IMG/VR virus record: IMGVR_UViG_3300037692_000546
Location: 1 to 58,332 of that record
From: a virus
Lineage: Duplodnaviria; Caudoviricetes
Strand: one strand, 5' to 3'
Length of the DNA stretch: 58,332 nucleotides
A program made the translations under genes and the position numbers. Below the pieces are notes generated by a model. The model made no database searches. It saw only the letters and a list, made by a program, of their open reading frames with translations, and was not told the DNA's origin. Shown one piece after another: positions 3,007 to 45,029 of this stretch (the stretch's first letter is position 1; each line of letters opens with the position of its first letter).

Positions 3007-3570
3007 TTACCAAGAGGCTTGATAGGTAAAGTGGGGGTATCCGTAATCGTCTTCTTCGGCTTGCTGCAAAGCGGCGTCGATGATCCGAACTGTTTCTTTT
3101 AGGTTTTCCAAATACCACTGATCGTAATCGGTCGAGCCGAAAAAGAAGCCCCCTGAAGTAGGTAGCAGTTTGTCGGCGACTTCGCGGTTGAGAATCACTT
3201 GGCCTTGTTCAAGATTCGGCAAAAACGGTCCGCCATTGCTGGCTGAATAGCCGTTGACAACAATCCCTTCGCCAACCTGCGAAGCGGCCAGAACTTGTTG
3301 ACAGAGATCGCGCAATTTGATCAATTGCTTTTTGGTGACAAAAGACTCCTGGCCTTTATCGACACCGTTTTGCACATTGTTTACGAACCATTTGTGGATA
3401 GCATTGGCTTTACGCCAGTAGCCGACTTGGAGGGTAATTTCTGAGACCTGGTTCAACCGAATCGGAATCGGTTTACCCTCTTCATACAAATCAATGGTGC
3501 CGGTGATATTTCGGTGCTTGTAGTTGGCACCGATATAGATCTTTCGGTTAAGGTACATGTCCAATCCCAT
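3007..3570 (-). CDS. conserved phage protein (MGLDMYL...YWRKANAIH family)
   Basis: Characteristic MGLDMYL / YWRKANAIHKWF / LPTSGGFFFGSTDYD / YQASW motifs; start at 3570 after AAGGAG. Confidence 0.7.
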   Translation of the reverse strand: MGLDMYLNRKIYIGANYKHRNITGTIDLYEEGKPIPIRLNQVSEITLQVGYWRKANAIHKWFVNNVQNGVDKGQESFVTKKQLIKLRDLCQQVLAASQVGEGIVVNGYSASNGGPFLPNLEQGQVILNREVADKLLPTSGGFFFGSTDYDQWYLENLKETVRIIDAALQQAEEDDYGYPHFTYQASW

Positions 3571-3851
3571 AAATTTTCTCCTTTTGAAATCAGGTTCTTG
3601 TAAGCGGCGAAACCATAATATCGGTTTGCCTTTCATTGGGGGTCGATGGTGGTCGCTGGTTTATGCCGTTGCTGCTGTTGCTCGCGTAATTGCAGTTCCC
3701 GATGCAGAATTCTGAGCCATTGCAGAAGTAGGGACTTTTCCGACAAAACTATATGTTCGATAAATTGTTCGGTCGTCATGCAACGGCCTTTCATAACGAG
3801 TTGGGGGTTGATGGTTACAAAGCTCATGCAAATGCGGGTTGTCCCAATCGA

Positions 3852-4079
3852 TCATAGGCCCTCCAGGTAGATGTAGCCGCGGGGAAAAAAGTGCAGTTTG
3901 TCTTCGTTCCAAAAGGCTTCGGGGTATTCGAAGCAAAACTTCGGGCCGAACAGCTCAAAGGCTTTGGCCCGCCCGGCTGCGGCATCCGGACTCTCAATTA
4001 CCGCCACACAGTCTTTGTCGAAGAAGTGTGGGCCGATCTGGTGCCGATGGTCAAAGCCAAATGTCACATAGGTCTTCAT
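3852..4079 (-). CDS. hypothetical phage protein
   Basis: RBS GGAGG, ATGA coupling. Confidence 0.55.
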   Translation of the reverse strand: MKTYVTFGFDHRHQIGPHFFDKDCVAVIESPDAAAGRAKAFELFGPKFCFEYPEAFWNEDKLHFFPRGYIYLEGL

Positions 4080-4240
4080 GCGTCCTCCAGTCTTAAATTG
4101 CGTTTGGCGGCTTCCAGGCGGGCGAGCAGAGCGTAGTCCTGCCGGCCCGCCTGTTGTTCCTTGTCATAAACTCCTTGCACTTGTCGGTTGGTACAACCGC
4201 GCAGATATGCTTCAAACTCTCTTTGGTCCTGCATCTTCAT
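4076..4240 (-). CDS. hypothetical protein (54 aa)
   Basis: Manual translation MKMQDQREFEAY...; ATGA overlaps at both ends. Confidence 0.5.
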   Translation of the reverse strand: MKMQDQREFEAYLRGCTNRQVQGVYDKEQQAGRQDYALLARLEAAKRNLRLEDA

Positions 4241-4596
4241 AACACCTCCAAGGCGTTCCAGGCCGCAATCAGTTTGTCTTCGATTTCGTCCAGGCGGGTT
4301 TTTAATTCTTCCTCACTGATACTGTAGGCTTTGAGCTGATACCAGATACCGGACTGTTCACCAGTAAGGCAGGCCTCTGCCGATACGTAGGGCTGTTGGT
4401 TGATTGTCCACAGAAAAGGAGTGATGCAAAAGCTAGGGGGCTTTTCGTTGCAATGACAGGGGCGGGCCGGATATTTGATTTTACGCCAGGCATACCAATT
4501 ACATTCATTGATAGGGACAGGCAAAGAATTTATTCCGACAGTGAAACCCTGTTCAGTAAGCCAAACCCGCCAGGCGTCTTGTCCTGTAAATTTCAT
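4237..4596 (-). CDS. hypothetical phage protein
   Basis: RBS GGAGG, ATGA coupling. Confidence 0.6.
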   Translation of the reverse strand: MKFTGQDAWRVWLTEQGFTVGINSLPVPINECNWYAWRKIKYPARPCHCNEKPPSFCITPFLWTINQQPYVSAEACLTGEQSGIWYQLKAYSISEEELKTRLDEIEDKLIAAWNALEVL

Positions 4597-4729
4597 AATA
4601 CCTCCAAAATTGGCCCTGGATAGCGCTTCGTAGCTCTGGCCATAGGTAAGGGCAGCTTATAGAAATAAAGCCGCTGGAAAGTGAAGAACAGCGTCTGGCG
4701 GGTGTTCCAGGAACCGAAAGCGAAGACGA

Positions 4730-5074
4730 TCATATCTTCTCCTTGAGAAATTGATAGACCGCGTCGGCGAAGCGGTCGGGGTCTATCATCGCTTCCTGAA
4801 TAAAGTTAGCCCCATTTGTTATACCTTCCTCGTCTATGAAAAAATCCCACCGCACAACGTCAGCCCACCATTCCTGCTTTTGCGCCCAACTCCACAGCTT
4901 GAAGAAACCATCCGGGGTGGAGAAATTGTTGTACGCAACTGGCTTTTCCTCACCACACTTTGCGCAGATATCGCTTTCTTTGGTGCCTTCATCAAAAGGT
5001 TTCGGCACCTGAAGGAACTCATGCCAGCACTCGTTCATTGCCTCGGTTAAAAACCTGTTGCGCTCGATATTCAT
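4730..5074 (-). CDS. hypothetical phage protein
   Basis: RBS GGAGG, ATGA coupling. Confidence 0.6.
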   Translation of the reverse strand: MNIERNRFLTEAMNECWHEFLQVPKPFDEGTKESDICAKCGEEKPVAYNNFSTPDGFFKLWSWAQKQEWWADVVRWDFFIDEEGITNGANFIQEAMIDPDRFADAVYQFLKEKI

Positions 5075-5331
5075 TCTTCCTCCGTAACCTGTGAAATAAA
5101 TTTATCCACTTTTGTTTTTAAAGTGCTGTATGCCTGTTCAACGGTCAGCAGGCGTTTCTGGTAGTACTCCAGTGCCGCAACGAAGGCATCGGTTTCGCTT
5201 TTTGCACACATGGCCAGGTTCATTCCTCTCGTCTCATCGTACAGCCAGAAGCCCTTGTTCCCGCCAGACTTGAACTCGCACAGCGACAGGGTTTCGCTCA
5301 GATTTATAAGGTTGTCCGGTGGCTTGCTCAT
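5071..5331 (-). CDS. hypothetical phage protein
   Basis: RBS GGAGG, ATGA coupling. Confidence 0.6.
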   Translation of the reverse strand: MSKPPDNLINLSETLSLCEFKSGGNKGFWLYDETRGMNLAMCAKSETDAFVAALEYYQKRLLTVEQAYSTLKTKVDKFISQVTEEE

Positions 5332-5621
5332 GCTTCCTCCCTGACCAGATGAAAACCGGGGTCCGGCTGTGCCCCGGCAACAACCTGCACGTCATACTCC
5401 ACCCAGCGGCTTGAGCCATCAGCAAAGGTTTCAATACGTTCAAAACGCCAGCCCATCGGTACCCGTTTCGAGCAGCGGCCGAACTGTTTCAGGCAGTTGA
5501 TAAACAGGGAATACTTGGTAGGGACTTCAATGTTTACTTCGGCGTCGAACTCGAAATCATAGGTGCGGTCTTTGCCCTTTTCAAATTCACGACGAGCGAC
5601 AGCGATTTTCACCAGATACAT
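5328..5621 (-). CDS. hypothetical phage protein
   Basis: Tight operon spacing. Confidence 0.55.
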   Translation of the reverse strand: MYLVKIAVARREFEKGKDRTYDFEFDAEVNIEVPTKYSLFINCLKQFGRCSKRVPMGWRFERIETFADGSSRWVEYDVQVVAGAQPDPGFHLVREEA

Positions 5622-5623
5622 AA

Positions 5624-5803
5624 TTAGGCTCCTTCGTTATCTTCCTTGAAACCGAAACCACCAACTGCGTTGCCGTTGATGTCCCGAATCGGGCCCTCTG
5701 TCTGCCTGGCCGCCAAACGATCGGCGGTTTCGCGCAGAATGCGGGGCAGTTCTTCTTTGTCATGAAAAGCATCATTGGTTGTCCGAACAGAGAGATAAAA
5801 CAT
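5624..5803 (-). CDS. small conserved phage protein
   Basis: NDAF...ELPRILR...IRDINGNAVG pattern; start ATG 5803 after AGGAGG. Confidence 0.55.
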   Translation of the reverse strand: MFYLSVRTTNDAFHDKEELPRILRETADRLAARQTEGPIRDINGNAVGGFGFKEDNEGA

Positions 5804-5877
5804 TGGTAACCTCCTTTTTGGTTTGAGGGAAGAAATCTTCCAGACTGCCCCCGAGTGTTCGGGAGCAGAAGCAAGAT

Positions 5878-6162
5878 TCATTCTTTGGCGGGTTCGGGCG
5901 GTTCCTCTACTGGCGGAACATAGACCGCCTGCAGTTCTTTTGCTTCTTCCACACTGAGAACTTCAACCGTTTCCACATGATATTCCAGGAAGGAAGGCGC
6001 TTCGATACAGCGATAGCGTCCGGCGACCATCTCGGTGGTTACGCCTTGCTGTCGGCTATCGAGCAGGCAAGTAATAGCTTTGAGGTCTTCCAAGCTATTG
6101 AAGACAAAAGAGGTGCCAGAACTGAAGCCGGTGCCAAAAGTCAGGCGATACTTTCTCATCAT
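5878..6162 (-). CDS. hypothetical phage protein
   Basis: RBS AGGAG. Confidence 0.55.
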   Translation of the reverse strand: MMRKYRLTFGTGFSSGTSFVFNSLEDLKAITCLLDSRQQGVTTEMVAGRYRCIEAPSFLEYHVETVEVLSVEEAKELQAVYVPPVEEPPEPAKE

Positions 6163-6188
6163 ATTTCTCCTGTAAATGTGCGCAAAGG

Positions 6189-6283
6189 TTCACTACGCAA
6201 AATTTGCATAGCGGATAAAAGTTTACTAACTGAAGCGTAATTTGCTGAAACAATTAAACATTTCACTACGCAAAAATTGCATA
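6189..6283. promoter_or_regulatory. two 22-bp direct repeats, each an imperfect palindrome (operator-like)
   Basis: TTCACTACGCAAAATTTGCATA (6189-6210) and TTCACTACGCAAAAATTGCATA (6262-6283), 73 bp apart. Confidence 0.6.
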
Positions 6284-6313
6284 TTGACAGGCTGTTTTTT
6301 ATTGAGCTATAAG
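6284..6313 (+). promoter_or_regulatory. sigma70-like promoter, antisense to the surrounding genes
   Basis: TTGACA (6284-6289), 18-bp spacer, TATAAG (6308-6313). Confidence 0.5.
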
Positions 6314-6422
6314 GGGGGGCAGGGGGGGATTGATTGTGTCTTGGTACTTTCCTCTTCGAGGGCCCAACGGGGGAAAAAACAAAACAAAAGCGGCCCGCCT
6401 TTCCTCTTTTGACCTTTCTCTC

Positions 6423-6641
6423 TTAAGCCTGGTATTCATTAACAACTCTGGCTATTCCATCGATAATCTTTCGCATTCTGGTGTTTTCCAACTCCAACAC
6501 TTTAATTCGTTGCCAGAATTCCAGGTGCGCATTATCAAACGAGCCTGGCTGGTCTGTGCGGCTGCCGGCCAATTGTCCGTAGCGGAGTAATACCCAATCT
6601 TGAGGGTTGTCTGAGCTGATATCCATTGTATATTTAGCCAT
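6423..6641 (-). CDS. hypothetical protein
   Basis: RBS AGGAGG. Confidence 0.55.
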   Translation of the reverse strand: MAKYTMDISSDNPQDWVLLRYGQLAGSRTDQPGSFDNAHLEFWQRIKVLELENTRMRKIIDGIARVVNEYQA

Positions 6642-23640: not shown

Positions 23641-26600
23641 ATGGCGGGTGCATTGTCGGAAAGCATGGTTGAATATGCCCTGCGGAAACAGACGGGCGAG
23701 CCGGTAAAGAACGCTTCTTTTCTTGACCGGACTAAGGATGTTGGCGTTGACGCTATGCGGGCAGTGGTCGGTGCCGGCGAATCGGCGGTTGGTTTAGTCG
23801 ATTTTCTTAACCCGGTGTCGACGTTGTTCCCCAAACTGTCACTCGGTTCATCGCTCAGCAAGATCGGTTACGACCCGAAAGCGACCCACGAAATCCTTTC
23901 CGACCTCTATTCCGATGAACGGCAGGCGGAACAGCGAGACGTTTCCGAGGCTTTTGACGAAAGCTTTTGGGGCGGCATGGGTGAAGCATTCAGTAACCCG
24001 GCAACCGTTGCCGGTACCGTGGTGCAGTCGATCCCCTCGATGCTGATCGGCCGTGGGTTGGGTGGAGTAGCCGGTAAGGCTTCAGCGCTGGTCAAGGCCA
24101 GCCCCTGGTTGCAAGCCGGATTAGGTGAAGGCTTGGTCACCGCTGGTTCAACCATGGAACAACTCCGTCAGGAAAAAGGCGAGACCGATCTTGGTGATCG
24201 CGGCTATGCGGCTTTGGCTGGCGGATTGACCGGCTTGCTTGGTGGAGTTAGTAATAAACTCGGCGGCAAATTAGGGATCGGCGATATCGATGCGCCAACC
24301 CCGCAGGAAGTGTTATTGAAAGGCGCACGGAAAAGCGGTGCCAGGCGGTTTGCCGAAGGCGCTTTGATGGAAGGCTTTGTTGAAGAACTGCCGCAGTCGA
24401 TGCAGGAACAGGTCATCATGAACGTCGCCACCGATAAGCCTTGGAGCGAAGGTTTATCGGAAGCAGCCGGCATGGGGGCTCTGTCCGGCATGGCGATGGG
24501 TGGACCAATGGGCGCCTATCAGCAAAAGTTGCAGCTTAACGAGGCTGCCCGCGAACAGGCCCACCAGGAACTGCTCAGTGAAACCGAACAGCGCCTTGCT
24601 GCTGAAGAAGTCAAACAGGAGACCGGTCTGGCCCAGGGTACAGCAAGCCAATCCTTACTGACCGAGGCCCCGACCATTGATGAACTCGCCACCGGGCAGA
24701 CGGTGCTGGCGCTGCGCGGCCAAACAGCGGAGAAGCAGCAGGAGATCGAACATCAGGCGGCGCAGAACGAAGCGTTGATCACCGAAGAAGAAATCCAGCA
24801 ACAGGAAGCCGACCCGATTCATCATCCAATTGCCCAGGCTATTGGAATAGAAACGCCACTCTTCCGCCAAGCGGTCAGTCAGATCTATACCGCGGCAAAG
24901 AATTTTGGCGAATTCTCTAAACAGCTGGTACAGCAGTTCGGCGAAGCGGTCAAGCAGTACGCCGTCAAACTATGGACTGCATATAAAGGTTCCAAACTCG
25001 CCGAACAGCGCGGGTCGTTCAGCCTTAAGCCGACTGGCGATCCAGTGGTTGATGAACATCTGACCGCCCAACGCGACAATAAAGTAAGCAAATTGATCGA
25101 CAGAGCGTTTGGCGAGATCGAGGAAGGCACGACTACCCCCGCCACCCTAACGTCGCTCAGGGAGGCGTACCAGGGCCTTCCTGAAGGCGAATTAAAGGCC
25201 GAGCTGTTAGAGATGGGCAGGCAGTATGCGGAAAGAAGTAAACAAGCCGCGCCTGCTCAAACAACCGAAGCAAAAGGTATCAACATTTCTACACGGGCGG
25301 GCGATCCATTAGGTCGAGCGCTCACTAATCCAACTTGGGGTAGTAAGAAGGATGGCAAAAACTATTTTGACGTGGAAACCGCTTACAAAGCCAACGCCAG
25401 CCGTAAGAAGGCTCCGCAACTAAACGCCGATGAAGCGTTGCACTACGACATGAACCTGATGTACGGATTGCAGGTGGAAAAGTTCAAACGGCATCCGGAG
25501 TTGGTGGAGGAAATTACTCAACGCGGGGGCGTGGATTTCCTCAAAGCCTCGGAACATACCGTTGGAGTCAAGGGCAGTCGTTGGGAAGGGAAGGGTGAGC
25601 AGAGTAATTTTATCCGGGTACTGGTGAAGGCTTACGAAGCTGCGCTGAAAGAATCGTCTGCCGCCGCAAAGGAAGCCGCGCCCGCCACCGATCCATTAAC
25701 CGAAAAGACCGCCTATCTCGACGATTTACGTCAGACGGTTAATCAGCCAAAGGAAACTGCACTTGCGGTTGAAGAGGATTACAGCAATCCCGAAGGGGCC
25801 CTGCAGACTCTCTATGAAAAGATCCGCAAAACTCCCGGGCGGCAGAGGAGCAGCGACAACTACTGGAAGCTGAAAGCCCAGCGGGAAGTTACCGCTCGCG
25901 ATGGCGAAGAGCTGATTTCCGCGGAGTCGGTACCCTTTGCCCAACGGAACGAAGAACAGAAAGGCCTTGGCCAGAAGAACCAGTGGAAGGACAAGGAGAA
26001 AAGCCCGCCGGCCGACTTCTGGCTGGACTTTGCCTTCTCGCTCAAAGAACCCCCGGCTGATAAGCAGAGCAGTCCCGCACCGTCCAAAGCCGGCCAGAAG
26101 CGCCTGTTGACCCTGCAGCAGCATTACAATGGTTTGCTGCCCACCCTGCGTAAAGCCTATCAGTCCGCTTCCCCGGAGAATCAGGCGCGGATTGCGGCGC
26201 TCGGACAGCGGCTCCAACAACAACTCGCCCCGACTGCTACTGCCCCACTGCAGGAACAAGTGGTCAGTGATGATTATGGCTCGGTTGAAGAGCTAATGGC
26301 GGCTATGGCAAAGGTGCTGCCGGAGCATAAGCGCCCACTCAACAAGGAAGAGCGAGACCACAAACAGCTCATGGAGCAGATCACTGGGGTGCATCTCAGT
26401 GAGGAGCAGCGTAAGTCACTGTTTCGGGAACGCGCCCAGCAACTCAAAGACGCCGCCAAGCAGGAAAAGGATCGCGAGAGTATCGCCGACCGCGGTAAAG
26501 CGAAAACTGTTCGGCGGATCGAATATCTACAGAACCGCCGCGAAAGCTTAACCAATGAACTCACGACGCTAGAAACTGTTAAGGCTGACTTGGGGGATAA

Positions 26601-29600
26601 TTCCGGGATTGAAATGAAACTGGATGCTGTCGCCGAAGAATTGCAAAGCGTTGAAGACGAACTGGCCAAAACCCAGGAAGAGATCTATGCCGGCCAACTC
26701 GCCCAGGAAGAACGCTGGCTTGATCAGGGCGAAGCCGCCGCGCAGGAGGAGTTTTATGACGGCTCAGAAGAAGAAGGGGATGATGCCTTCTCCGGCGTAG
26801 CCAAGCCGCGCAAACTAAAGCCGATCGATAACCTTGACGCCAATCCGAAGAAGGGGGTCGGCGGGCTCGATGCGGACGAATTGACCCCAGGCGTCGATCC
26901 CGATCGGGCGCGATTCGATTACCTGCGCCGACCGAGTGATGATCTGGAACAGGATCTGGCCGCCGATGATCCGACCCAACAAAAAGCGCTCAGCGACGCC
27001 TTTGAACAGATGATGGCTAATCCGGAACTGGCGACTGCCGCCGAAGGCGAACAGAGCCCAGCCGCCTTCATTGCCAACATTCTTGATTCACTCAAAGAAC
27101 GCTACGATATCGATCTGGTGGTGAAGGCGCTGCTGGCCAAAGAAAAGATCACCACACTGCGCAAGCTGAAGCCGGGCCTGCCGCAGTTTCTCAGCGATCT
27201 GTTGGAATACGACGAACGCCTACCGGATATCGACGAATACGATCTGACCGCCAAGGAAGAAGTTGAAGTCAATCAACTCTTCAACGAAGAGATCCGCGCA
27301 GAAGAAGCGGTGTTGAGCCAGGTCGACCCAAAGGTGCTGGAGAATGCCACCAAGGGATTGCAGACAGTAACTTCACTAGAGAAGTTGGCCAGCAACAATC
27401 CCACTTTGAAGCGGGCCCTGGCCCGGTCGCGACAGGAAGTACGCCGCCTATCGAAAGCGCAGGCCCGGGAAAAACAGTACGGCCTGTTTCGTTCAGCAAC
27501 CCAGTCTTATCTCGACGGTAAGGAGTTGCGTCAAGCTGACGTCTCTCAGGCGACCATCAACCGGTTGGCGGCACAGAACATCGTACCCTTTCTCGATGCG
27601 CTTTATACCCTCGCCAATGAAGGTTTGAAGAAGAAGGCCCATATCCTCGATATCGGCCGGGTACTCAACACCATGCGCCGCAATACCCTGGCGACTGATG
27701 ATTTCCGCTATCTCGACAAAGCGGCCAACAAGACCAGGCCAACTGATGATCCCACTCAGGGGTTGGTGGTACGGCAGTTGTTGCGCAACTTTATGGTGCA
27801 GGCGGGTTGGGACGAGAAGAGCGCCTGGAGTGATGAACAAGTTGCCGAAGCCTTGCCGGAAAATCTCGAAGCCCTGAACAACGGCCGGCCCGCTCCCGAC
27901 TCCGGCGATATCACCATGTTCATGTCCAAGGCCGCCTGGGATATTCGCAACACCGAACCACTGATCAATATCTATGGCAGTATGAACCAGGACGGCCGTA
28001 GGCACGATACTTCCAAGGTTCTCTGGGTCCGCACCAAACGGCCGAACGGTACCTGGTCGGAACCGATGCCGATGAACGAACTCGACGTTGTAGCCATGGA
28101 AGAAAAGAACCTGCCAATTCAGCGCACCGGCCGCGAACTGGCTCCAGGGGCGGTCACCCAACTCTTTGCCTGGACCCAGGACAACACCCGGCGCAATCTC
28201 TGGGGGGAAGCGATCGAGCGCAATCTGCTTCTGAACGGCGCCCCGGTCACCGAAGAGATGTTCAAAGCCAACGAAGCCCTGCATGAGCGGATCAGCGAAC
28301 TGCAAGAAAAGAATAAAACCCGTACCGCGCAGGAAGATGGTGAACTGAAAACCGCCGAACGGCAGGCGCAGACCATGGATATCGCCATTAAGGCCGGACT
28401 GTGGAACCGCCAGTTCAAAGCGGCCAAGATCCTCGACAACGATTACTTTGAAAAACTGGCCAAAGCGGCCAAATACAAACCGCTGCAGAAAACCGCCGCC
28501 GAACTGTACGAACTCTTTCAACAACATGGCGCCGATCCGGTCGCCTTCAAAAGTGTTTTGACCCAACAGTTACTTGACCATCGACAAGAAGAACTGACCG
28601 GCTTTCATCACCGAGCCTTGCAGGCGCTGGATAAGGCGTCCCGCAACGATAAAGAAGCTGTTGCCGCTGCAGCACAGAAGGAGGTTCGTACCTTTCTGCT
28701 ACAGAAGCTCGGCAAGGAGCTGGGCGGGCTTTATGAGCAGAAATACGATCAGGGGCAGGCCGTTACCCTTGACGCCGTGCAAACGCGCACTGTAGAAGCT
28801 GCCAGGGTCTATGAGCTGCAAGCACTGCGCGCCCTCGATCAAACCATCAAACAGGAACGCTCGGCCGACTATCGCAAAAAAGCCGCTACCGCCGATGACC
28901 GCAAGGTGGAGAAGGTCCTGTCTCTAGCGACGGAAAAGTACTTGCGTTCGCTGGAGGTGGAGATCAGTGATTACTTTGTGCCAAAAGCCCAACTTGATTC
29001 GTTTGAGCAAGAACTGCAAAGCCAACATCCCTATCTGACTGTCGGCCAGTTCAGTCTCAACAACCTGACGCCGATCCTCTTGAACGAGCAAAGCCTGTTT
29101 GAACAGATGCTGAACAAGGTGGCTAGTCTGTTCGGCGCCGACCTGGTACTGGTCAATGCACCAGGTTATCGTTCGCGGTATGTTGGCAAAGCCACCGATG
29201 GCCGCTCAAAAATCATCCTCAATGCCCGAGTTGGCAAGGTCGATCTGGCCCGGGTCTTTGCCCACGAAGTCTTTCATCATGTCTTGAACAAGCTGACCAA
29301 AGGCGAATTCCTGGCCTTCAGAAACTCGTTGCAGCACATGATCGCTAACCCCGGTCTGTACCGCGGTGAACTGGCCAACCGCTTTATCCAAGACACCTAT
29401 CTGTCCGGGATGAACGAAGACGGCCCAAACCTGCGGAGTATCACCCTTTTGAACCAGGCGATTGCCGCCACCGCGGTCAAGGAAGGCATCTCTCGCGAAC
29501 AGGCTGAGCAGGAAGTCATGAGCGAACTGTTCGCTGACGTCGCCACCAGTAAGGCGTTCTACGAGCATCTGGCTAAAACCCTACCCGGGCGGACCTTAGC

Positions 29601-32600
29601 CGCCAAACTGATTCTGCGTCTGCTGCCGCAATTAACCACGTTCTTCGAGTTTTCGTCCAAGGCCAATGGCTTCAGTTTCGAAAAGGATCTGTTGCTACAG
29701 AAATCAGATATGAATTCGATCTATTCCTTGTTTGCTGAAACGCTCGGCTTCTCGCTGGAGCCAGGCCGCGACGTGCGGTATGCCGGCGAGCAGTTTCAGA
29801 CTGCAGTGCAAAGCGGCCAAGCCTTAAGCGGCAAGATCTGGAAAGCGATCTTCCCCACCGGTTCGATCTCGCGCAAACAGTTCATGACCAGTATCGAGAA
29901 GTTCGCCAAGCTGGTGTTCGATAAATTTAAAGAGATCCGGCCCAAATTCATTCACGCCGACCTCTGGGCCAGTCCGGAAGAAACCAAGCTGGCGTACAAG
30001 GCGGCGCATGCCGGCACCTATCTGAAAGATCAGTTAAGCCGCAAGCTGGAAAAGTATCGCCGCACCTTTCACGGCTGGACTCCGGAACAACTGGAAAAGC
30101 TCAACGATGACTTCGCTCGCGGCGTTACCGCCGAGCGTTCAACCGATCTAAAAGTCTTGACGGCTTACGATAAACATATGACCGCCTTGCTGCGGGCGCG
30201 GGCGGACGGCAAACTGACCGAATGGCAGTTCAACAAGAAGTCGAAACAGGCCTATGAAAAGACCATGGTTCGCACCCAGGACCCGATCGATGTCGGTACG
30301 CCTGTCCGCCCGAACGCCAGCGGTATCGCCAAGGCCAAGGCGCTTGGTTACAGCGACGAGGTGATCGAAGTCTTTCAGCAGTATAAAGAGCAGGCCGACA
30401 TCATGTACACCGCTCTACGGAAGATCTATCCCGATTTGCCGCACAACGCGACTCATTACGGGCAGTCGATCCGCTGGTTCAGTAAGAACGGTATTGTCCT
30501 CGACGACAGTTATGACTGGGCGGTCAATCCGGAATATTCCAAACTCGAAGGCAACAAGCGCTTCTTAAAGAACCGCGATATGGAAAGAACGACCAGGGAG
30601 ATCGCCGAGGAATACCAGATTGAGGCGCAGACCCTCAATCCCCACGACCTCTTTCTCCGCTACATGCACGACGCCCAACGGTTGATCACCTTACATGAAG
30701 TGTTGCAGGAAGGCATGAGCAAGAAGCTGATCAAGGGCTTCCATGGCGAAAACCGCGAGACGAAAGCGGCCAAGGAAGGTTATGTGCCGGTCAACGATAA
30801 CGTCTTTAAGATACTGGCCAAGCTCGATCTGCCGGAAACCTTTCGCATCCAACTGGCCGGTGGCGATTATCTGCAACAGCAGAATCGCGAAGCGGTTTAT
30901 GGAACCCACGAAGAAGCTAGCCAAGCTCTGAACCAGGGCTTACAGGAAGATCCTGCTACTTTTAGTATGGCCACCATCGAAACCGGCAAGGGCCTCTCAC
31001 AGCAGCATACCGCGCAATGGCGGGTGTTGCTTGTTACCCCCCAGGGCGATCGCTTGCCGCATCAGCAGACCTTTCAGACCGAACGACAGGCCAATGAGTT
31101 TGCAACTCAGAAGCAACAGGAAACTGGTATTCCGCATTATGCAGAACGCGAACTGGCGACCGCCGATACGGCGCAGATTGGTCAGTTCTATATGCGTAAA
31201 GATCTCGCCAACATGCTCAATATCTTGCTGGGTAAGGATCATATTCGCAACGGCACGTTCATGGGTATTAGCGGTAACCAGGTGATGAATGTCAAAAATA
31301 TGCAGACCTCGGTGGAATTTGCTGTGTCGATGTTTCACCTGATGACCATCGGCCAGGAAATGGTCTCGTCCGAAGCGGGACACGTCCTGCAGCGCTACAA
31401 AGGTTCCGAACGGGTCAAGCGTTTCATCAACGCCTTCCGCCCAGGCAAAACCTTTGGCAAGGCCAATCAGCTGGTGACCTTGTTGACCGCGGTCATCGCC
31501 GATGAAAGCCTGGCGACCGATCCGGCGGTAATCCAAAAAGCCAACGAACTGCTCGGCACCAGCAGCGTCGATCTGCTCGACCTGGTCAAGACCTACTACG
31601 ACGGGGTTGGCGGCATGCTCGGCCAGGACGAAAGCCTGCGCTCCTCGGTGCACGGTTATGGCAAGATGCGCTACACCAGTAAAGAGGACAAGCTGAATGT
31701 GGTTAACGGCGAAGTGCAGTTCGAACGCGGTATCGTCTCCGATCTGTCGTTAAAGGCGATGATGGACTCGGGCGGTGAAGTGTTCGACAACGAAATGGCC
31801 AAATCTGGCAAGAAGTGGAAGGCGGTCAGCAAGACGACCCTGTTTGGTTTGATGCAGGCGCCATCGGCTTTCCTCATGGAATACGGCATTCCCCGGGTAA
31901 AAATGGCGATGTGGGCCCAAGAATACACTTTGGAGCTGGATCGGCAGAAAGACGCAATTGCGGCCGGCAGCAAGACCAAGGATGAAATCGCCCGCGACGT
32001 GATGTTCTTCATCGAAGATCGGTTTGGCGAAGTGAACTGGAAAAACATGTGGATGAAGCCGACCGCCAAGACCGCGCTGCAGTTCCTCTTCCGCTCCTTC
32101 ACCTGGATGGCCGGTTCCTGGGTCGCCCTCGGTAAGGCCGGCTACGATCTCGGCAAACTCGGCTGGTTCACCATCAAGGGCGAACAATATCAACTGACGA
32201 CTAAAGGATATTGGGGGGTAACAGCCTTGATGTCACACATGCTGACCGTCGGTCTGGTCTCGACCGCCTATCTGGCCATTGGGGCAGCGGGCGGTGAAGA
32301 CGAAGTGCCGGATGATGAAGAAACCCCTCTTCTGACCAAGATGCTCTTTCCGCGGGTTTCGCGGGACGACCCGCAAGGTCGGATTACCGTGCCGTCTTAT
32401 ATCACTGAGCTGTACAAAATCATGCGCCATCTCGGGTTGATCGGGGATAATCAGGAACTATCAAAACTGGTTACTGGCAGGTTTAACTCCTTGGTGGGTA
32501 AAACGATTGAAGTGATCAATGGTGAAGATTGGCGAGGGGTATCGATTACTGCGCATGATGATGGCTTTGTCACTCGGGCCGCCAAACAAGCCGCGCACAT

Positions 32601-33156
32601 TGCTCTGGTTATGCCAATTTCGCTATCCACCGTAGCGCGGTCGATACAGAAGAAAGGCTTTAGCGGTGGAGCGGCAATTGGCCTGGCAGGGTTTACCGAT
32701 GCCCCTGCTTCGGCGAAACGTTCCGATGCCGCCAACAAGGCCTTTGAAATCAGAAGGCAAGAATACAAAGGCCGGCGGATCGATCCGGAGGACATGGAAG
32801 AAAGCGAAACCATCCGCCGAGCGGTTTATCAATACGCCCAGGGCGATCCTTCCGCCGTTAAGGAACTGCGGGCCGCCGGCAAACTCTCGACCAGGCAGTT
32901 TCAAAACGCCTTGCAGAAACAGCCAAGGATTAACGGCAAGCGCAACCCACGCTACAAGGACCCCTTATCGTCTGCGCTCAAAGGCCTGACCATCACCGGG
33001 GCAATGGAGACCTGGCAGTACATGACCGATACGGAAAAAAGGAAACACAAGACGACGCTGCGCAAGAAGTTCTACAACGTTCAGCGTCGCAACGATCGTT
33101 CGCCGCAGGAAAAAGACCTTATTCGGAAGAAGATGAAGGAGCTGCAGATCTTATGA
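23641..33156 (+). CDS. giant ejection / large polyvalent protein (NADAR-like, HExxH metallopeptidase-like and LPD38-like regions)
   Basis: 3171 aa, no Cys seen; Gly/Ala-rich N-terminus; NADAR-like ~25276-25640; HEVFH at 29263-29277; E..NG.DW.G..I near the C-terminus. Confidence 0.75.
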   Translation: MAGALSESMVEYALRKQTGEPVKNASFLDRTKDVGVDAMRAVVGAGESAVGLVDFLNPVSTLFPKLSLGSSLSKIGYDPKATHEILSDLYSDERQAEQRDVSEAFDESFWGGMGEAFSNPATVAGTVVQSIPSMLIGRGLGGVAGKASALVKASPWLQAGLGEGLVTAGSTMEQLRQEKGETDLGDRGYAALAGGLTGLLGGVSNKLGGKLGIGDIDAPTPQEVLLKGARKSGARRFAEGALMEGFVEELPQSMQEQVIMNVATDKPWSEGLSEAAGMGALSGMAMGGPMGAYQQKLQLNEAAREQAHQELLSETEQRLAAEEVKQETGLAQGTASQSLLTEAPTIDELATGQTVLALRGQTAEKQQEIEHQAAQNEALITEEEIQQQEADPIHHPIAQAIGIETPLFRQAVSQIYTAAKNFGEFSKQLVQQFGEAVKQYAVKLWTAYKGSKLAEQRGSFSLKPTGDPVVDEHLTAQRDNKVSKLIDRAFGEIEEGTTTPATLTSLREAYQGLPEGELKAELLEMGRQYAERSKQAAPAQTTEAKGINISTRAGDPLGRALTNPTWGSKKDGKNYFDVETAYKANASRKKAPQLNADEALHYDMNLMYGLQVEKFKRHPELVEEITQRGGVDFLKASEHTVGVKGSRWEGKGEQSNFIRVLVKAYEAALKESSAAAKEAAPATDPLTEKTAYLDDLRQTVNQPKETALAVEEDYSNPEGALQTLYEKIRKTPGRQRSSDNYWKLKAQREVTARDGEELISAESVPFAQRNEEQKGLGQKNQWKDKEKSPPADFWLDFAFSLKEPPADKQSSPAPSKAGQKRLLTLQQHYNGLLPTLRKAYQSASPENQARIAALGQRLQQQLAPTATAPLQEQVVSDDYGSVEELMAAMAKVLPEHKRPLNKEERDHKQLMEQITGVHLSEEQRKSLFRERAQQLKDAAKQEKDRESIADRGKAKTVRRIEYLQNRRESLTNELTTLETVKADLGDNSGIEMKLDAVAEELQSVEDELAKTQEEIYAGQLAQEERWLDQGEAAAQEEFYDGSEEEGDDAFSGVAKPRKLKPIDNLDANPKKGVGGLDADELTPGVDPDRARFDYLRRPSDDLEQDLAADDPTQQKALSDAFEQMMANPELATAAEGEQSPAAFIANILDSLKERYDIDLVVKALLAKEKITTLRKLKPGLPQFLSDLLEYDERLPDIDEYDLTAKEEVEVNQLFNEEIRAEEAVLSQVDPKVLENATKGLQTVTSLEKLASNNPTLKRALARSRQEVRRLSKAQAREKQYGLFRSATQSYLDGKELRQADVSQATINRLAAQNIVPFLDALYTLANEGLKKKAHILDIGRVLNTMRRNTLATDDFRYLDKAANKTRPTDDPTQGLVVRQLLRNFMVQAGWDEKSAWSDEQVAEALPENLEALNNGRPAPDSGDITMFMSKAAWDIRNTEPLINIYGSMNQDGRRHDTSKVLWVRTKRPNGTWSEPMPMNELDVVAMEEKNLPIQRTGRELAPGAVTQLFAWTQDNTRRNLWGEAIERNLLLNGAPVTEEMFKANEALHERISELQEKNKTRTAQEDGELKTAERQAQTMDIAIKAGLWNRQFKAAKILDNDYFEKLAKAAKYKPLQKTAAELYELFQQHGADPVAFKSVLTQQLLDHRQEELTGFHHRALQALDKASRNDKEAVAAAAQKEVRTFLLQKLGKELGGLYEQKYDQGQAVTLDAVQTRTVEAARVYELQALRALDQTIKQERSADYRKKAATADDRKVEKVLSLATEKYLRSLEVEISDYFVPKAQLDSFEQELQSQHPYLTVGQFSLNNLTPILLNEQSLFEQMLNKVASLFGADLVLVNAPGYRSRYVGKATDGRSKIILNARVGKVDLARVFAHEVFHHVLNKLTKGEFLAFRNSLQHMIANPGLYRGELANRFIQDTYLSGMNEDGPNLRSITLLNQAIAATAVKEGISREQAEQEVMSELFADVATSKAFYEHLAKTLPGRTLAAKLILRLLPQLTTFFEFSSKANGFSFEKDLLLQKSDMNSIYSLFAETLGFSLEPGRDVRYAGEQFQTAVQSGQALSGKIWKAIFPTGSISRKQFMTSIEKFAKLVFDKFKEIRPKFIHADLWASPEETKLAYKAAHAGTYLKDQLSRKLEKYRRTFHGWTPEQLEKLNDDFARGVTAERSTDLKVLTAYDKHMTALLRARADGKLTEWQFNKKSKQAYEKTMVRTQDPIDVGTPVRPNASGIAKAKALGYSDEVIEVFQQYKEQADIMYTALRKIYPDLPHNATHYGQSIRWFSKNGIVLDDSYDWAVNPEYSKLEGNKRFLKNRDMERTTREIAEEYQIEAQTLNPHDLFLRYMHDAQRLITLHEVLQEGMSKKLIKGFHGENRETKAAKEGYVPVNDNVFKILAKLDLPETFRIQLAGGDYLQQQNREAVYGTHEEASQALNQGLQEDPATFSMATIETGKGLSQQHTAQWRVLLVTPQGDRLPHQQTFQTERQANEFATQKQQETGIPHYAERELATADTAQIGQFYMRKDLANMLNILLGKDHIRNGTFMGISGNQVMNVKNMQTSVEFAVSMFHLMTIGQEMVSSEAGHVLQRYKGSERVKRFINAFRPGKTFGKANQLVTLLTAVIADESLATDPAVIQKANELLGTSSVDLLDLVKTYYDGVGGMLGQDESLRSSVHGYGKMRYTSKEDKLNVVNGEVQFERGIVSDLSLKAMMDSGGEVFDNEMAKSGKKWKAVSKTTLFGLMQAPSAFLMEYGIPRVKMAMWAQEYTLELDRQKDAIAAGSKTKDEIARDVMFFIEDRFGEVNWKNMWMKPTAKTALQFLFRSFTWMAGSWVALGKAGYDLGKLGWFTIKGEQYQLTTKGYWGVTALMSHMLTVGLVSTAYLAIGAAGGEDEVPDDEETPLLTKMLFPRVSRDDPQGRITVPSYITELYKIMRHLGLIGDNQELSKLVTGRFNSLVGKTIEVINGEDWRGVSITAHDDGFVTRAAKQAAHIALVMPISLSTVARSIQKKGFSGGAAIGLAGFTDAPASAKRSDAANKAFEIRRQEYKGRRIDPEDMEESETIRRAVYQYAQGDPSAVKELRAAGKLSTRQFQNALQKQPRINGKRNPRYKDPLSSALKGLTITGAMETWQYMTDTEKRKHKTTLRKKFYNVQRRNDRSPQEKDLIRKKMKELQIL

Positions 33157-42136: not shown

Positions 42137-42499
42137 TTATTCCTCCCATTCCGGGTCAATCGCCGCCACGGCGTCCCGAAGATCCCGAAGCGTGCAATCG
42201 TCTCCATCGCAAAGATGAAGATTCTCCATCAGAGTGTTTCGGGCCGCGTACAACAATTTCCCAAGTTTTGGTGATATATCTTTAGCCCGTTGCGCCAATT
42301 GCACAGCGTCTCTGACCGTCGCGGGTATCTCGCCGTCACTTGTGAAACAATCCTGGTAATCTGCATCTTTTAGAATTTCTCGGATAGCAGAATAAACACT
42401 TGCCTGCCCGGCATCGAACGCGATTTTGCAGTAACCAAGAGCCGAAAGCGGCGTACCTTTTGACTGCATTTCCTCTGCAACTTCATCCCAATTTTTCAT
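42137..42499 (-). CDS. hypothetical phage protein
   Basis: Operonic, ATGA coupling. Confidence 0.55.
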   Translation of the reverse strand: MKNWDEVAEEMQSKGTPLSALGYCKIAFDAGQASVYSAIREILKDADYQDCFTSDGEIPATVRDAVQLAQRAKDISPKLGKLLYAARNTLMENLHLCDGDDCTLRDLRDAVAAIDPEWEE

Positions 42500-42690
42500 T
42501 TATCCTCACCCTTCATAGCTATCTGCACGATACTACCTCCTGGCCCTGCGTACTCTGCCGCCTGTTCTCTGGTTGCAAAAACTAGTATACAGCCTGTGCA
42601 TCCATCAGCCATGCCTGAAATTTGCAGGGTTTTCTTTAGCCCCATGATTTCGATTTCGACTTCTTTTTTCAATGACATTGCAGCCCACAT
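42496..42690 (-). CDS. hypothetical phage protein
   Basis: RBS GGAG directly beside the cassette-array boundary. Confidence 0.55.
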   Translation of the reverse strand: MWAAMSLKKEVEIEIMGLKKTLQISGMADGCTGCILVFATREQAAEYAGPGGSIVQIAMKGEDK

Positions 42691-42700
42691 TTCATACTCC

Positions 42701-42750
42701 GCTTAAGTATTGGCTTATATAGGGGGGGGTCTGTATAAGCCTTGTTATAT
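42701..42750 (+). other. candidate attI-like/primary recombination site at the 5' end of the cassette array
   Basis: Core GTTATAT (42744-42750) preceded by the inverted repeat GGCTTATATAG...CTGTATAAGCC. Confidence 0.45.
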
Positions 42751-42960
42751 TTCTTCGCCGTCCTCGTCGGTTTGCACAAATTCGATCCTGTGCAGGCATC
42801 GAACGAAAAAGGTTTTACCGCAATCCGGGTTTGGACATTTCAGTTCGCTGTCGTCGCAATCTCCGGTGTAGACCTTGCCTACGGTGTACTCTCCGTGCCA
42901 GGTTTGTTCATCGTCAAACTCATAACCACAATGGTTGCATGTTGGATTTTTTGTTTTCAT
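42745..42960 (-). CDS. cassette 1 ORF: zinc-ribbon protein
   Basis: CNHC...CPNPDC; RBS GGAGG; TAA stop inside the core site. Confidence 0.65.
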   Translation of the reverse strand: MKTKNPTCNHCGYEFDDEQTWHGEYTVGKVYTGDCDDSELKCPNPDCGKTFFVRCLHRIEFVQTDEDGEEI

Positions 42961-42974
42961 TCTAACCTCCAGAA

Positions 42975-43039
42975 ATATAACCAATCGCTGCAAGCGGACT
43001 CGGCAAACTGCGCCGAGCCCTTGACCTTAGTCGTTCTAT
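42975..43039 (+). repeat. attC site 1 (65 bp)
   Basis: ATATAAC-CAATC-GCTGCAAGCGGACTCGGC...GCCGAGCCCTTGACC-TTAGTC-GTTCTAT. Confidence 0.8.
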
Positions 43040-43233
43040 TGTTTCTTGGTAGCGAACAGACCGCCCGTCTTTTTCATCCAGGTTTTGGTAAGGCCCATTC
43101 CGCCTTCGTCGCTGATCCCGTAGAGCAGGTCGCTTGCAGCTTCGAGAGCTTTTGCGGCCAGGTAGATCGGCATAAATAAGATGTCCAGTAAAATAAAGAG
43201 CAGTAGTGCCATCAACCAGATGATTTTTCCCAT
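43036..43233 (-). CDS. cassette 2 ORF: small membrane protein
   Basis: N-terminal TM IIWLMALLLFILLDILFMPIYL; RBS GGAGG. Confidence 0.6.
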   Translation of the reverse strand: MGKIIWLMALLLFILLDILFMPIYLAAKALEAASDLLYGISDEGGMGLTKTWMKKTGGLFATKKQ

Positions 43234-43248
43234 TTTCGCGCCTCCGCA

Positions 43249-43351
43249 ATAGAACCCATCAGTGAAGACGACGCGCAACTCAGTTCGCGTTTGGCCCAGG
43301 GTCTCTGTGGTACGCGGTCATTCTGCTACGCGTCTTACCTTATCGTTAGCG
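43249..43351 (+). repeat. attC site 2 (103 bp)
   Basis: ATAGAAC-CCATC-AGTGAAGACGACGCG...CGCGTCTTACC-TTATC-GTTAGCG. Confidence 0.8.
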
Positions 43352-43621
43352 AAAATATAAATGTGGCAGCGTCCACCGTATTATTTGCAGCCGCCCGTTT
43401 CTGTACCACCGAACGCTGCGCCAGGAGTTCCGCGCCTTGCACACTGGCAGCACCAACCCGGTTTTACCTTCCCGACAGTATGAGCATGTGCAGTTCGGTT
43501 CATGGTCTTCGCGCAGTATCGAAGGCCGTGAAATCCTCAGCCACTTTCTGCAGGTGCCCGCTAACAAAGCGTTTGAGTCGGACGATTCAGCGGCAGTGGT
43601 TCTCGGTTGACTTTCGTGCAT
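43346..43621 (-). CDS. cassette 3 ORF; RBS and ATG lie inside attC3
   Basis: GGAGGTGAAAC-ATG within the attC loop; CTCSYC; TAA stop in the core site. Confidence 0.55.
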   Translation of the reverse strand: MHESQPRTTAAESSDSNALLAGTCRKWLRISRPSILREDHEPNCTCSYCREGKTGLVLPVCKARNSWRSVRWYRNGRLQIIRWTLPHLYFR

Positions 43622-43663
43622 GTTTCACCTCCAGAGCGTCGCCGCTCAGCTTAGTCGTTATGT
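43559..43663 (+). repeat. attC site 3 (105 bp)
   Basis: CGCTAAC-AAAGC-GTTTGAGTCGGACG...CGTCGCCGCTCAGC-TTAGTC-GTTATGT. Confidence 0.85.
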
Positions 43664-43665
43664 CT

Positions 43666-43812
43666 CTAAAACCATCGATACGTTGCTGGCATTTTTTGCC
43701 ACTCGAATATCAACACCTGACCGTTGTCGTGTGGGTCGGATAGCACTCGATATGGAGTAATCGCCAGCCTCCGAACAAATAGATACCTAAACAACCTCTT
43801 TATTTTTTTCAT
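43666..43812 (-). CDS. cassette 4 ORF (48 aa)
   Basis: MKKIKRLFRYLF...; RBS GGAG. Confidence 0.5.
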   Translation of the reverse strand: MKKIKRLFRYLFVRRLAITPYRVLSDPHDNGQVLIFEWQKMPATYRWF

Positions 43813-43831
43813 CTCTCGTCTCCGATCCGCG

Positions 43832-43916
43832 CCATAACAATTGGGTGAACCGGAGCGCTGACGCGCTCCACTCCGATCCACCAGACTACCGCGCCCGGTT
43901 ACCCAAGGCGTTGTGT
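43832..43916 (+). repeat. attC site 4 (85 bp)
   Basis: CCATAAC-AATTG-GGTGAACCGGAGCGC...GCGCCCGGTTACC-CAAGGC-GTTGTGT. Confidence 0.85.
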
Positions 43917-43928
43917 GCCGAACAGCCT

Positions 43929-44099
43929 TCACCCCTCTGCCCAGTACGACAGCTCTGAATCTACCGCCTCTTTCGGGGTCATCCCGTCGTTGAATTCGTC
44001 GGTTGCGGCTTCGGCTAGTTCTCCGGCCAAATCTTGGTCTACGGCACCAGATTCAACGAAGTGTTTCGCATATTCGGCATTCCATTCTTTCCTGTCCAT
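43929..44099 (-). CDS. cassette 5 ORF: small acidic protein (56 aa)
   Basis: MDRKEWNAEY...P.EAVDSELSYW; RBS GGAGGAG. Confidence 0.6.
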   Translation of the reverse strand: MDRKEWNAEYAKHFVESGAVDQDLAGELAEAATDEFNDGMTPKEAVDSELSYWAEG

Positions 44100-44126
44100 T
44101 CTCTCCTCCATAAAGTGGTGGTTAGC

Positions 44127-44185
44127 GCACAACCCAGCGGTCAAGCGGACGGGGAAACCGTCCGCCGCTTACCTTGTCGTTATCT
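44127..44185 (+). repeat. attC site 5 (59 bp)
   Basis: GCACAAC-CCAGC-GGTCAAGCGGACGG-GGAAA-CCGTCCGCCGCTTACC-TTGTC-GTTATCT. Confidence 0.9.
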
Positions 44186-44422
44186 GGCAGGTCGCCAGTG
44201 TGTAGGTTTACATTCCACCGAAAAACCGCACGTCCACCATGTGTTACTGTAGGCCAGTGTTCCATTGGGTGCGTATGGCGTTTTCAAAAGGATCTTTTGT
44301 CTCCCATCTCTCGGCGCTGTTTCGATCGGTTGCCAGCTAACCCGGCGCTCAACGGCGGACTTGCTACGCAAGTCGCGAATTTCGACTCCTGTGCAGTCCT
44401 TGAACATTTCGCTGTTTTCCAT
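44180..44422 (-). CDS. cassette 6 ORF: DUF551-like phage protein starting inside attC6
   Basis: WQPIETAPRDG...PTHW.P; N-terminal KSAVERRVS is encoded by the attC arm. Confidence 0.65.
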   Translation of the reverse strand: MENSEMFKDCTGVEIRDLRSKSAVERRVSWQPIETAPRDGRQKILLKTPYAPNGTLAYSNTWWTCGFSVECKPTHWRPAR

Positions 44423-44439
44423 TTCGTCCTCCTGTTAAT
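44335..44439 (+). repeat. attC site 6, right core missing
   Basis: AGCTAAC-CCGGC-GCTCAACGGCGGAC...GTCCTCCTGTTAAT; no GTT at the expected spacing. Confidence 0.55.
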
Positions 44440-44579
44440 TTGCCCCACAATCCATTCCCAACCGTCCGCCCTGCCGTATCCCTTCGCGTTGTGCCGTTCG
44501 TGCCTCCTGACCGGCAAGGCGTTCCGTCATTACCAGGCTGCTTTAAGAAAACAGCCCGGTAAGGAGAAACTTGACAAAG

Positions 44580-45029
44580 CTACTTTTCCCCTTCTTGGCG
44601 GGCGAGGATTTCGGCGGCCAAATAATTGATTGCTCCACGCAAATCGTTTATGGCAGCCTCGGTTGGCAGGCGCTGTGATTCCTGAGCTTTCTTCATCGCC
44701 TGGCCGATTGTATATCCGCTGCCAACCATGCGTCGGATCTGCAGGATCGGTTGCTGCAAAAAAGGCTTGTCAGTAGCATGGCGTTCTTTTCCTTTGCCGA
44801 ATTGTGCTTGGTTAAGGGCGTCAATAAGGACTTCGAAAAGCGGGTCGTAGCCGGCAGCGACGGTCACGTTCCGGTTGTGTAAGCCAGATTCTTCCGGTAG
44901 GGGGATTTCTTCAACCGTCTTCACCCCGACGTCGCTAGGCGATGAACAAGCGCACGGTTTGAGGCTGCCCAGGGGATAAGTCGCCTTGCGGGTGGATTTG
45001 TCTTCTTCAAGCCAGCTGTTTGTAGTCAT
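44580..45029 (-). CDS. conserved phage helical protein (possibly MazG-like fold)
   Basis: QA..GKGKERHA...PF..QP...GQA.KK..E...AINY. Confidence 0.55.
   Translation of the reverse strand: MTTNSWLEEDKSTRKATYPLGSLKPCACSSPSDVGVKTVEEIPLPEESGLHNRNVTVAAGYDPLFEVLIDALNQAQFGKGKERHATDKPFLQQPILQIRRMVGSGYTIGQAMKKAQESQRLPTEAAINDLRGAINYLAAEILARQEGEK

Follow-up and report, generated by a model that had tools for sequence, protein, structure and literature searches.

Gene cassettes of probable reversed polarity in an integrase-free attC array of a tailed phage

In which direction do gene cassettes read when a phage carries them? Integrons are regarded as bacterial devices in which the orientation of the cassettes is set by the Pc promoter. 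The virus record IMGVR_UViG_3300037692_000546 of IMG/VR, estimated to be 81% complete, raises the question, as six small predicted minus-strand genes (c1 to c6) alternate in it with repeats that resemble integron attC sites of the opposite, plus strand. We analysed the whole record of 58,332 bases, hereafter the window, and judge it very likely that positions 42745-44494 are a group of clustered attC sites that has no integron integrase (CALIN) in a tailed phage, made up of five attC-bounded cassettes and a sixth unit behind a decayed site, with the genes reversed relative to attC polarity. Phage CALINs are already known (PMC9892861); the reversed gene polarity is new as far as our search extended.

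The predicted proteins identify the window as tailed-phage DNA. On the plus strand, matches to PHROGs comprised the small and large terminase, a portal-like protein, the major head protein, head closure and structural proteins and an endolysin; on the minus strand, a primase/helicase, a replication initiator, RusA and an exonuclease. The array closes the replication/early operon of the minus strand, at its downstream end. The integron-integrase model TIGR02249, which responded to tyrosine recombinases in 14 of 14 control genomes, had no match across the 58-kb record, and no tyrosine recombinase was found in the window. The locus lacks the integrase of a complete integron (intI, attI and Pc; attI and Pc were not sought separately), and its five sites of one polarity, packed within 1.2 kb and with no intI nearby, form the arrangement by which a CALIN is recognised (at least two neighbouring attC).

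attC-like sites and minus-strand genes

Inspection of 42700-44500 revealed five intergenic imperfect palindromes, each ending in ..CGTT on the plus strand. Home-made attC scanners proved too permissive, with a mean of 76 hits on shuffled sequence, and a covariance model was therefore used in their place. Using the IntI1 gene of plasmid R46 as a query, 80 intI1-type loci were fetched from named bacterial genomes, and a polarity-neutral filter (core consensus plus an L-box test, with the bulge allowed in either arm) yielded 49 distinct candidate attC upstream of intI. The model, R1, was home-made from 25 aligned bona fide attC top strands of 55-72 nt, with the R-box and the first nine L-box pairs as the only structure specified. 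Run with filters off on both strands of the whole window, a search space of 116 kb of strand, R1 placed its five best matches on the five repeats, all on the plus strand: site 1 (42975-43039; 15.7 bits, E 0.085; GTT core 43033-35), site 2 (43253-43347; 15.2 bits, E 0.11, model positions 5-62; GTT core 43345-47), site 3, which has a long loop (43560-43663; 18.3 bits, E 0.018; GTT core 43657-59), site 4 (43832-43916; 17.6 bits, E 0.029; GTT core 43910-12) and site 5, the best of the five (44127-44185; 38.5 bits, E 1.8e-7; GTT core 44179-81). The sixth-ranked match in the window scored 10.4 bits, and the single minus-strand match within the five sites was a 6.7-bit fragment. Site 5 has the layout of the orfD attC of plasmid R46 and of L065:7001-7060, and its left arm matches attC left arms in the loci L065 and L111.

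In the R1 alignment, all five sites run in the order AAC, a spacer of 5 nt, three pairs, a single bulged base, six further pairs, a second spacer of 5-6 nt and GTT, so that the R'' (AAC) and R' (GTT) cores are present in every site. The R' boxes read GTTCTAT, GTTAGCG, GTTATGT, GTTGTGT and GTTATCT, their outer four positions fitting RYYY/RRRY loosely. Canonical pairing occupied 91.4% of the cells of this alignment, which was fitted to the model, versus 29-46% with slid partners, and both sides had changed in 6 of 16 pairs; within the L-box of the same fitted alignment, 94.1% of cells were paired and both-side changes occurred in five of nine pairs. No Rfam family matched the repeats.

A sequence-only reading of the window had noticed unpaired extra bases in the left arm on the plus strand and had taken that strand as the attC top strand, with the genes on the minus strand. 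Both points are supported. Every one of the five sites has its extra base on the left (R''-L'') arm, three pairs into the L-box, as real attC do, and in a strand control all 82 R1 matches at E<=0.01 upstream of intI fell on the expected strand (44 intI loci; training sites included). As a second control, the published CALIN of Tetrasphaera phage TJE1 was called on the plus strand, on which its three annotated genes also lie. The identification of the five repeats as integron attC-like sites with their top strand on plus is supported by these model matches and controls.

With crossovers between the G and TT of each core (G/TT), the five cassettes span 42745-43033, 43034-43345, 43346-43657, 43658-43910 and 43911-44179. 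All six predicted genes lie on the minus strand, each with an ATG 6-8 nt past GGAGG or GGAG, a Shine-Dalgarno (SD) motif. Canonical cassettes hold an open reading frame (ORF) on the attC top strand that reads toward the attC; here, every ATG ORF with an SD lies on the bottom strand, and four of the four inter-attC intervals of the window were called reversed. The long plus-strand ORFs (145, 150, 96 and 151 aa) use TTG or GTG as start codon, are not preceded by an SD and cross attC sites, and apart from shadow matches of c6 they have no family or homologue in PHROG, Pfam or tblastn searches of the fetched loci. Codon scores trained on 19 confident genes lay above zero for c1, c2 and c5 and below zero for c3, c4 and c6.

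The gene c1 (42745-42960, 71 aa; GGAGG; codon score +0.17) encodes a zinc-ribbon-like protein with two Cys pairs. For this protein, the zinc ribbon of the sequence-only reading, Pfam returned weak zinc-finger matches alone (E>=0.018); the small acidic protein of the same reading is c5 (43929-44099, 56 aa; GGAGG; +0.46), which matches phrog_12309 (E 1.2e-4). A homologue of c1 (50% identity over 93% of its length) is encoded in the cultured Vibrio phage 1F273_PE002, where it is wedged between overlapping operon genes with no attC; no c1 relatives were found in the viral contig collection. The gene c2 (43036-43233, 65 aa; GGAGG; +0.46) has a hydrophobic N-terminal stretch and neither a PHROG or Pfam family nor a phage homologue. 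The product of c6 (44180-44422, 80 aa; ATG with an SD) carries a WQPIETAP motif and has relatives encoded in at least 80 viral loci. It had been described as DUF551-like, which applies to its homologues more than to c6 itself: c6 has no match to Pfam DUF551 even at E<=1 (gathering cut-off 22 bits), and four of five homologues score 17.6-24.2 bits (24.2 in L190, 22.0 in L135, 20.4 in L177 and 17.6 in L119; none in L181), making c6 a putative DUF551 relative by transitive similarity alone. The remaining two genes are weaker. The status of c3 (43346-43621, 91 aa; GGAGG; -0.25) is uncertain: its start codon and SD lie within the loop of attC site 3, no homologue was found among families, fetched loci or the phage collection, and a rival plus-strand ORF in the same cassette (43437-43610, 57 aa) has a TTG start, an SD and a codon score of +0.09. 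The weakly supported c4 (43666-43812, 48 aa; GGAG; -0.18) encodes a basic protein with no PHROG or Pfam family at E<=0.01 and no tblastn match among the fetched loci. Against 50,697 phage records, c2, c3, c5 and c6 had no match at E<=1e-3, and c1-c5 had no homologue besides themselves among 172 reversed viral cassettes.

Because c1, c2, c5 and c6 are backed by homology or codon usage, reversal is well supported for these four; for c3 and c4 it is plausible, on the basis of ATG and SD alone. The earlier statement that all six cassette ORFs are inverted thus holds for four genes and is weak for two, and validated attC exist for five cassettes, c6 lying to the right of the last validated site. 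The same reading placed four stop codons inside GTT cores. Two of them do overlap the TT of a validated core, the TAA of c3 (43346-48) in site 2 and that of c6 (44180-82) in site 5. The TAG of c2 (43036-38) follows directly after the GTT of site 1 but within the 7-nt R' box, and the TAA of c1 is formed by the first three bases past the left GTT junction, whose GTTATAT (42744-50) belongs to no validated attC.

Gene polarity in viral, metagenomic and intI-linked arrays

When 80 loci encoding c6 relatives were scanned, R1 found 31 attC matches in nine of them (nine in L190, seven in L135, three each in L119 and L116, two each in L181, L133, L156 and L177, and one in L113), and all 31 were on the strand opposite to the c6 homologue. 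Nearly every inter-attC interval in these arrays contains one SD-preceded ORF on the strand opposite the attC. We then surveyed at least 120 stretches of viral contigs selected with an attC-only pattern, which removes cargo bias. R1 matches numbered 293 in the first 80 loci and 155 in the other 40. An interval was defined by neighbouring same-strand attC with a gap of 90-1500 nt and was assigned the direction of the longest ORF that has an SD and spans half of the gap or more. Among 309 viral intervals, 234 were reversed, 9 canonical, 12 ambiguous and 54 uncalled, and arrays with at least two calls were all reversed in 50 cases, mixed in 7 and all canonical in 1. When the identical pattern and pipeline were applied to metagenome contigs (80 of 119 stretches), intervals were canonical in 89 cases, reversed in 36, ambiguous in 8 and uncalled in 80, with 18 arrays all canonical, 9 mixed and 5 all reversed, and the intI-linked control gave 25 canonical, 2 reversed, 0 ambiguous and 19 uncalled. 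The survey suggests that reversal is the prevailing layout of attC arrays on viral contigs, and a phage-adapted cassette pool, as the sequence-only reading had supposed, is strongly supported by 234 of 243 callable viral cassettes being reversed while metagenome and intI arrays are mostly canonical.

Pfam matches were obtained for 24 of the 150 reversed viral ORFs tested (162 distinct in all), among them 14 DNA methyltransferases (E down to 1.8e-52), two Lar restriction-alleviation proteins, an HNH, an RNA ligase and an ASCH domain; judged from such domain matches, the reversed viral ORFs are real genes. In the flanks of 33 viral loci, 39 of 57 long ORFs matched PHROGs at E<=1e-10, including tail proteins, terminases, helicases, primases and RecE/RecT. 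The separation of the pools is also visible in homology: at E<=1e-5, none of the 89 canonical metagenome cassettes had a homologue among viral cassettes versus five of the 36 reversed ones. The reversed metagenome cassettes are concentrated in a few wholly or mostly reversed contigs (L316, L326, L346, L351, L377 and L386), of which L316, L351, L377 and L386 have methyltransferase or other cassettes in common with viral contigs. Such mostly reversed metagenome contigs are probably unlabelled phage fragments.

Part of this setting has been described. Among 10,705 phage genomes, Qi et al. (2023, PMC9892861) identified 17 CALINs, with five methyltransferase cassettes, and showed that IntI1 recombined five of six phage attC sites (sites other than those of the window). 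Their CALINs resemble the window in having an attC array without intI in a phage, small ORFs of no assigned function and a canonical attC structure, and orphan DNA methyltransferases are common to them and to the other viral loci that we surveyed. Genes opposite to attC polarity are not mentioned in the accessible text of that paper, which describes the TJE1 and PH101 arrays as typical in structure. By R1, TJE1 is canonical, unlike the window; PH101 gave two weak matches (17.5 and 20.9 bits) on the plus strand, with all eight annotated surrounding genes on the minus strand. Literature searches and the accessible passages of integron papers, subscription papers being outside this coverage, yielded no statement of reversed gene polarity, and the pattern is undescribed as far as we searched.

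Bacterial arrays, whether mobile class 1 or sedentary chromosomal, share with the window the attC architecture, the sequence type, compact single-gene cassettes and stops at the core site; they differ in that their genes are on the attC top strand and those of the window on the bottom strand. Reversed cassettes do occur in chromosomal integrons, for example toxin-antitoxin cassettes with their own promoters, and there too the gene is antisense to attC polarity. Those are a scattered minority among canonical cassettes, whereas in the window and the viral contigs whole arrays are reversed and would be read as operons from outside promoters. That some cassettes carry their own promoters is noted in the available text of PMC4889954, which also describes an inverted integron-integrase group in Treponema and others; the orientation is likewise unusual in that group, but what is inverted with respect to the attC is the integrase gene there and the cargo genes here.

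Possible cassette exchange and proposed explanations of the reversal

Contigs from a single DNA run that contains the stretch, and is probably the source sample, bear on the mobility of the cassettes, although rare excision products are not detectable in such contigs; no RNA run was listed for the stretch. The phage flanks are equally deep on both sides (12.1 and 10.7), the 50-nt unitig of attC1 reaches a depth of 67.5, about six times that of the flanks, and the bins 42829-43190 and 44277-44457 have depths of 21-35. Alternative contigs part from the window at 42746, 42977/8, 44336 and 44367, positions that coincide with the edges of cassettes or attC, and another does so before 42708. Depth and contig breaks fit cassettes common to several genomes of the sample. 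A joint from 43035 to 44346 was considered as an IntI product and rejected, having 22 nt on its shorter side and not running from G/TT to G/TT.

If the array is read as a reversed CALIN, the phage mRNA of each unit would run from the attC hairpin through the SD, the ATG and the ORF to a stop at or next to the TAA/C crossover; a bacterial cassette is ordered ORF then attC, a phage unit attC then ORF. The genes would be expressed by read-through from phage promoters, and a host integron integrase could excise and insert the cassettes in trans by acting on the folded minus (bottom) strand. Reversed polarity would then separate two cassette pools in expression while leaving one recombinase for both. 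From this geometry, phage cassettes are predicted to be expressed in the phage and silent behind a bacterial Pc, as the sequence-only reading had also proposed, and captured bacterial cassettes would be antisense to phage transcription. The latter state would matter because many bacterial cassettes encode anti-phage defence, as abstracts in the field report. An expression barrier between the phage and bacterial pools is our favoured hypothesis for the reversal. We tentatively extend it, with rather limited confidence, to a picture in which phages keep a pool of opposite polarity, swap anti-defence and accessory genes through the host integrase behind a two-way firewall, and provide a DNA-level route by which phage genes become cassettes.

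A separate reversed phage pool, if real, would be a second mode of attC/IntI use. Orphan methyltransferases and restriction-alleviation genes abound in the sampled pool, which would offer a handle on the exchange of phage counter-defence genes; annotation pipelines that assume cassette genes to follow attC polarity would be affected; and cassette birth and cross-talk between phage and host pools would become testable by standard attC recombination assays.

The reversal might instead be a by-product of recombination mechanics, with phages retaining the orientation that allows movement within one infection, an explanation we consider possible but rather unlikely. Genes on the bottom strand make the recombinogenic strand the non-template strand and, if replication follows transcription, the lagging-strand template, where attC folds most easily. 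The accessible text of Richard et al. (PMC13108822) reports that folding and excision are favoured when the bottom strand is the lagging-strand template, and that inversion of the Vibrio cholerae array sharply raises excision; the viral arrays often stand beside replication or recombination genes, and the population contigs break at cassette boundaries. This account rests on an assumed replication direction for the window phage. It also has to face the preprint of Loot et al., whose available passages describe genomic cassette insertion at GWT in E. coli with no strand, replication or transcription bias, so that the viral bias should stem from selection or from the pool itself. An effect of strand exposure and an expression barrier could hold together.

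Alternatively, the cassettes could have been born in phages: an attC would have landed between phage genes and later been excised with the DNA 5' of it on the top strand, turning the adjacent phage genes into cassettes irrespective of their direction, and only insertions antisense to phage transcription would have persisted. This origin, which we hold to be a doubtful though serious candidate, would make good the idea of the sequence-only reading that phage genes become cassettes, for which the operon gene of the Vibrio phage, a non-cassette homologue of c1 in a cultured phage, is the one supporting case. The relatives of c6 fit as well, being ordinary phage genes in most of the at least 80 loci and lying within or beside arrays in nine, and so does the leader of c6 described below, which is shared with an unrelated cassette body. 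Moreover, 42 of 172 reversed viral ORFs end on the TAA of the core, at the G/TTA crossover; yet the TAA in the reverse complement of GTTA ends one frame in three by chance. No intermediate, such as a single attC beside the same gene in a syntenic relative, was seen, and no syntenic relative was found.

Several points weigh against the reading of the array as a reversed CALIN or against its favoured cause. Four of the five sites have modest scores of 15-18 bits, their R' boxes deviate from GTTRRRY beyond GTT, and unconstrained folds of the single-stranded bottom strand gave z = -1.9, 0.0, +0.7, -2.1 and -2.6 for sites 1 to 5, free-energy folding thus giving sites 2 and 3 no support. The ORFs c3 and c4 are weak, their codon scores lying below zero and the searches above having found no homologue. 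The survey covers one attC sequence type with a home-made SD-plus-ORF caller, partial contigs and the viral labels of IMG/VR, and its contrast is weaker without the SD requirement: the first 80 viral loci then gave 95 reversed, 22 canonical and 77 ambiguous intervals, the metagenome contigs 134 canonical, 27 reversed and 44 ambiguous, and the intI control 42 canonical and 0 reversed. The separate viral records L202 and L245 carry one array, with R1 scores identical site by site, so the survey loci are not all independent. Long flanking ORFs were co-oriented with the cassette genes in 61% of cases only (83 vs 53). A full IntI-like gene is present in two viral loci only, L240 and L278. Finally, the window contig crosses the attC1 repeat where the other assembly breaks, which leaves room for a mis-join.

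L278 itself adds a further case. In the region 3160-6536 of this low-GC viral contig, an IntI-like gene (44% identity to IntI1) occupies the canonical place with respect to three attC, and the cargo, including a Dam-like methylase further on, is reversed and so co-directional with intI. To judge by this arrangement, the contig may hold a complete, phage-borne integron of reversed type.

That the repeats are a phage-specific intergenic stem-loop merely resembling attC, acting for example as a terminator, in RNA processing or as a recombination hotspot, appears highly improbable. The lack of an integrase in the phage, the modest scores at four sites, the weak free-energy folds and the lack of a matching Rfam family would all suit it. 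Against it, R1 was trained on bacterial attC alone and picks exactly these five sites from 116 kb of strand, their AAC and GTT cores, spacers of 5 and 5-6 nt and bulge position are those of real sites, and sister viral arrays reach 63.6 bits, inside the 24-71 bit range of real integrons. Least credible of all is that the array is canonical with the long plus-strand ORFs as its true genes, or that a mis-join has brought bacterial integron DNA into a phage contig: ORFs of 96-151 aa do exist on the plus strand and the Logan contigs of the DNA run break at attC1, but those ORFs have the start codons, the missing SD, the passage through attC and the lack of homologues described above, both flanks hold phage genes at equal depth and the same architecture recurs on many independent viral contigs.

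Array boundaries and neighbouring features

At the left end of the array, a hairpin followed by GTTATAT (42712-42750, plus strand; arms 42712-22 and 42731-41) has a z of -3.9 when folded as single-stranded DNA. R1 called no attC there; the GTT at 42744-46 likely marks the left-boundary crossover, between 42744 and 42745. Two side observations concern this region. A contig of low depth (2.2) skips 191 bases (42496-42688), nearly all of a 64-aa gene at 42496-42690, and in a deeper contig the G-run of the boundary hairpin is longer by two G (window position 42721).

At the right end, a degenerate, long, sixth attC-like site can be traced at 44347-44494 on the plus strand (R'' 44347-53, R' 44488-94), enclosing the SD, start codon and leader of c6. 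R1 does not find it, and its free-energy fold (z +0.9) gives it no support. The first approximately 28 codons of c6 form a leader nearly identical over about 95 nt to L116:2998-3095, where it heads an unrelated protein and lies inside a long attC (L116:2955-3087) called weakly by R1 at 18.9 bits. The placement of this counterpart within a called attC suggests that the window holds a decayed sixth site that supplies the translation start. Start codons within attC recur in the viral arrays: approximately 28 of the 172 reversed viral ORFs have their predicted start inside the upstream attC. Some long attC carry an SD and a start codon in the variable loop, the attC arm then encoding the first codons of the gene. 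Viral attC cores often read GCATAAC ... GTTATGC, the core itself containing both TAA and ATG, and in TJE1 (L193) the annotated orf3 takes its start codon from the ATG that lies in the R' core of attC 2 (1069-1075).

Comparison with known phages gave little further context for the window, as blastn against cultured phages returned short matches alone and no close cultured phage. The neighbouring protein encoded at 44580-45029 has relatives in 31 loci, with one weak attC match among them; these loci have that single gene in common with the window, so the near lack of attC there is uninformative about an empty site. Just downstream of this gene lies a strong hairpin (44520-44571). Its Rfam match to mir-8 (28.6 bits, below the gathering score of 47) was rejected as false, and it is probably a terminator-like or RNA-stability stem-loop rather than a microRNA. 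Elsewhere in the window, positions 23641-33156 form a single ORF of 3171 aa inside the structural module.

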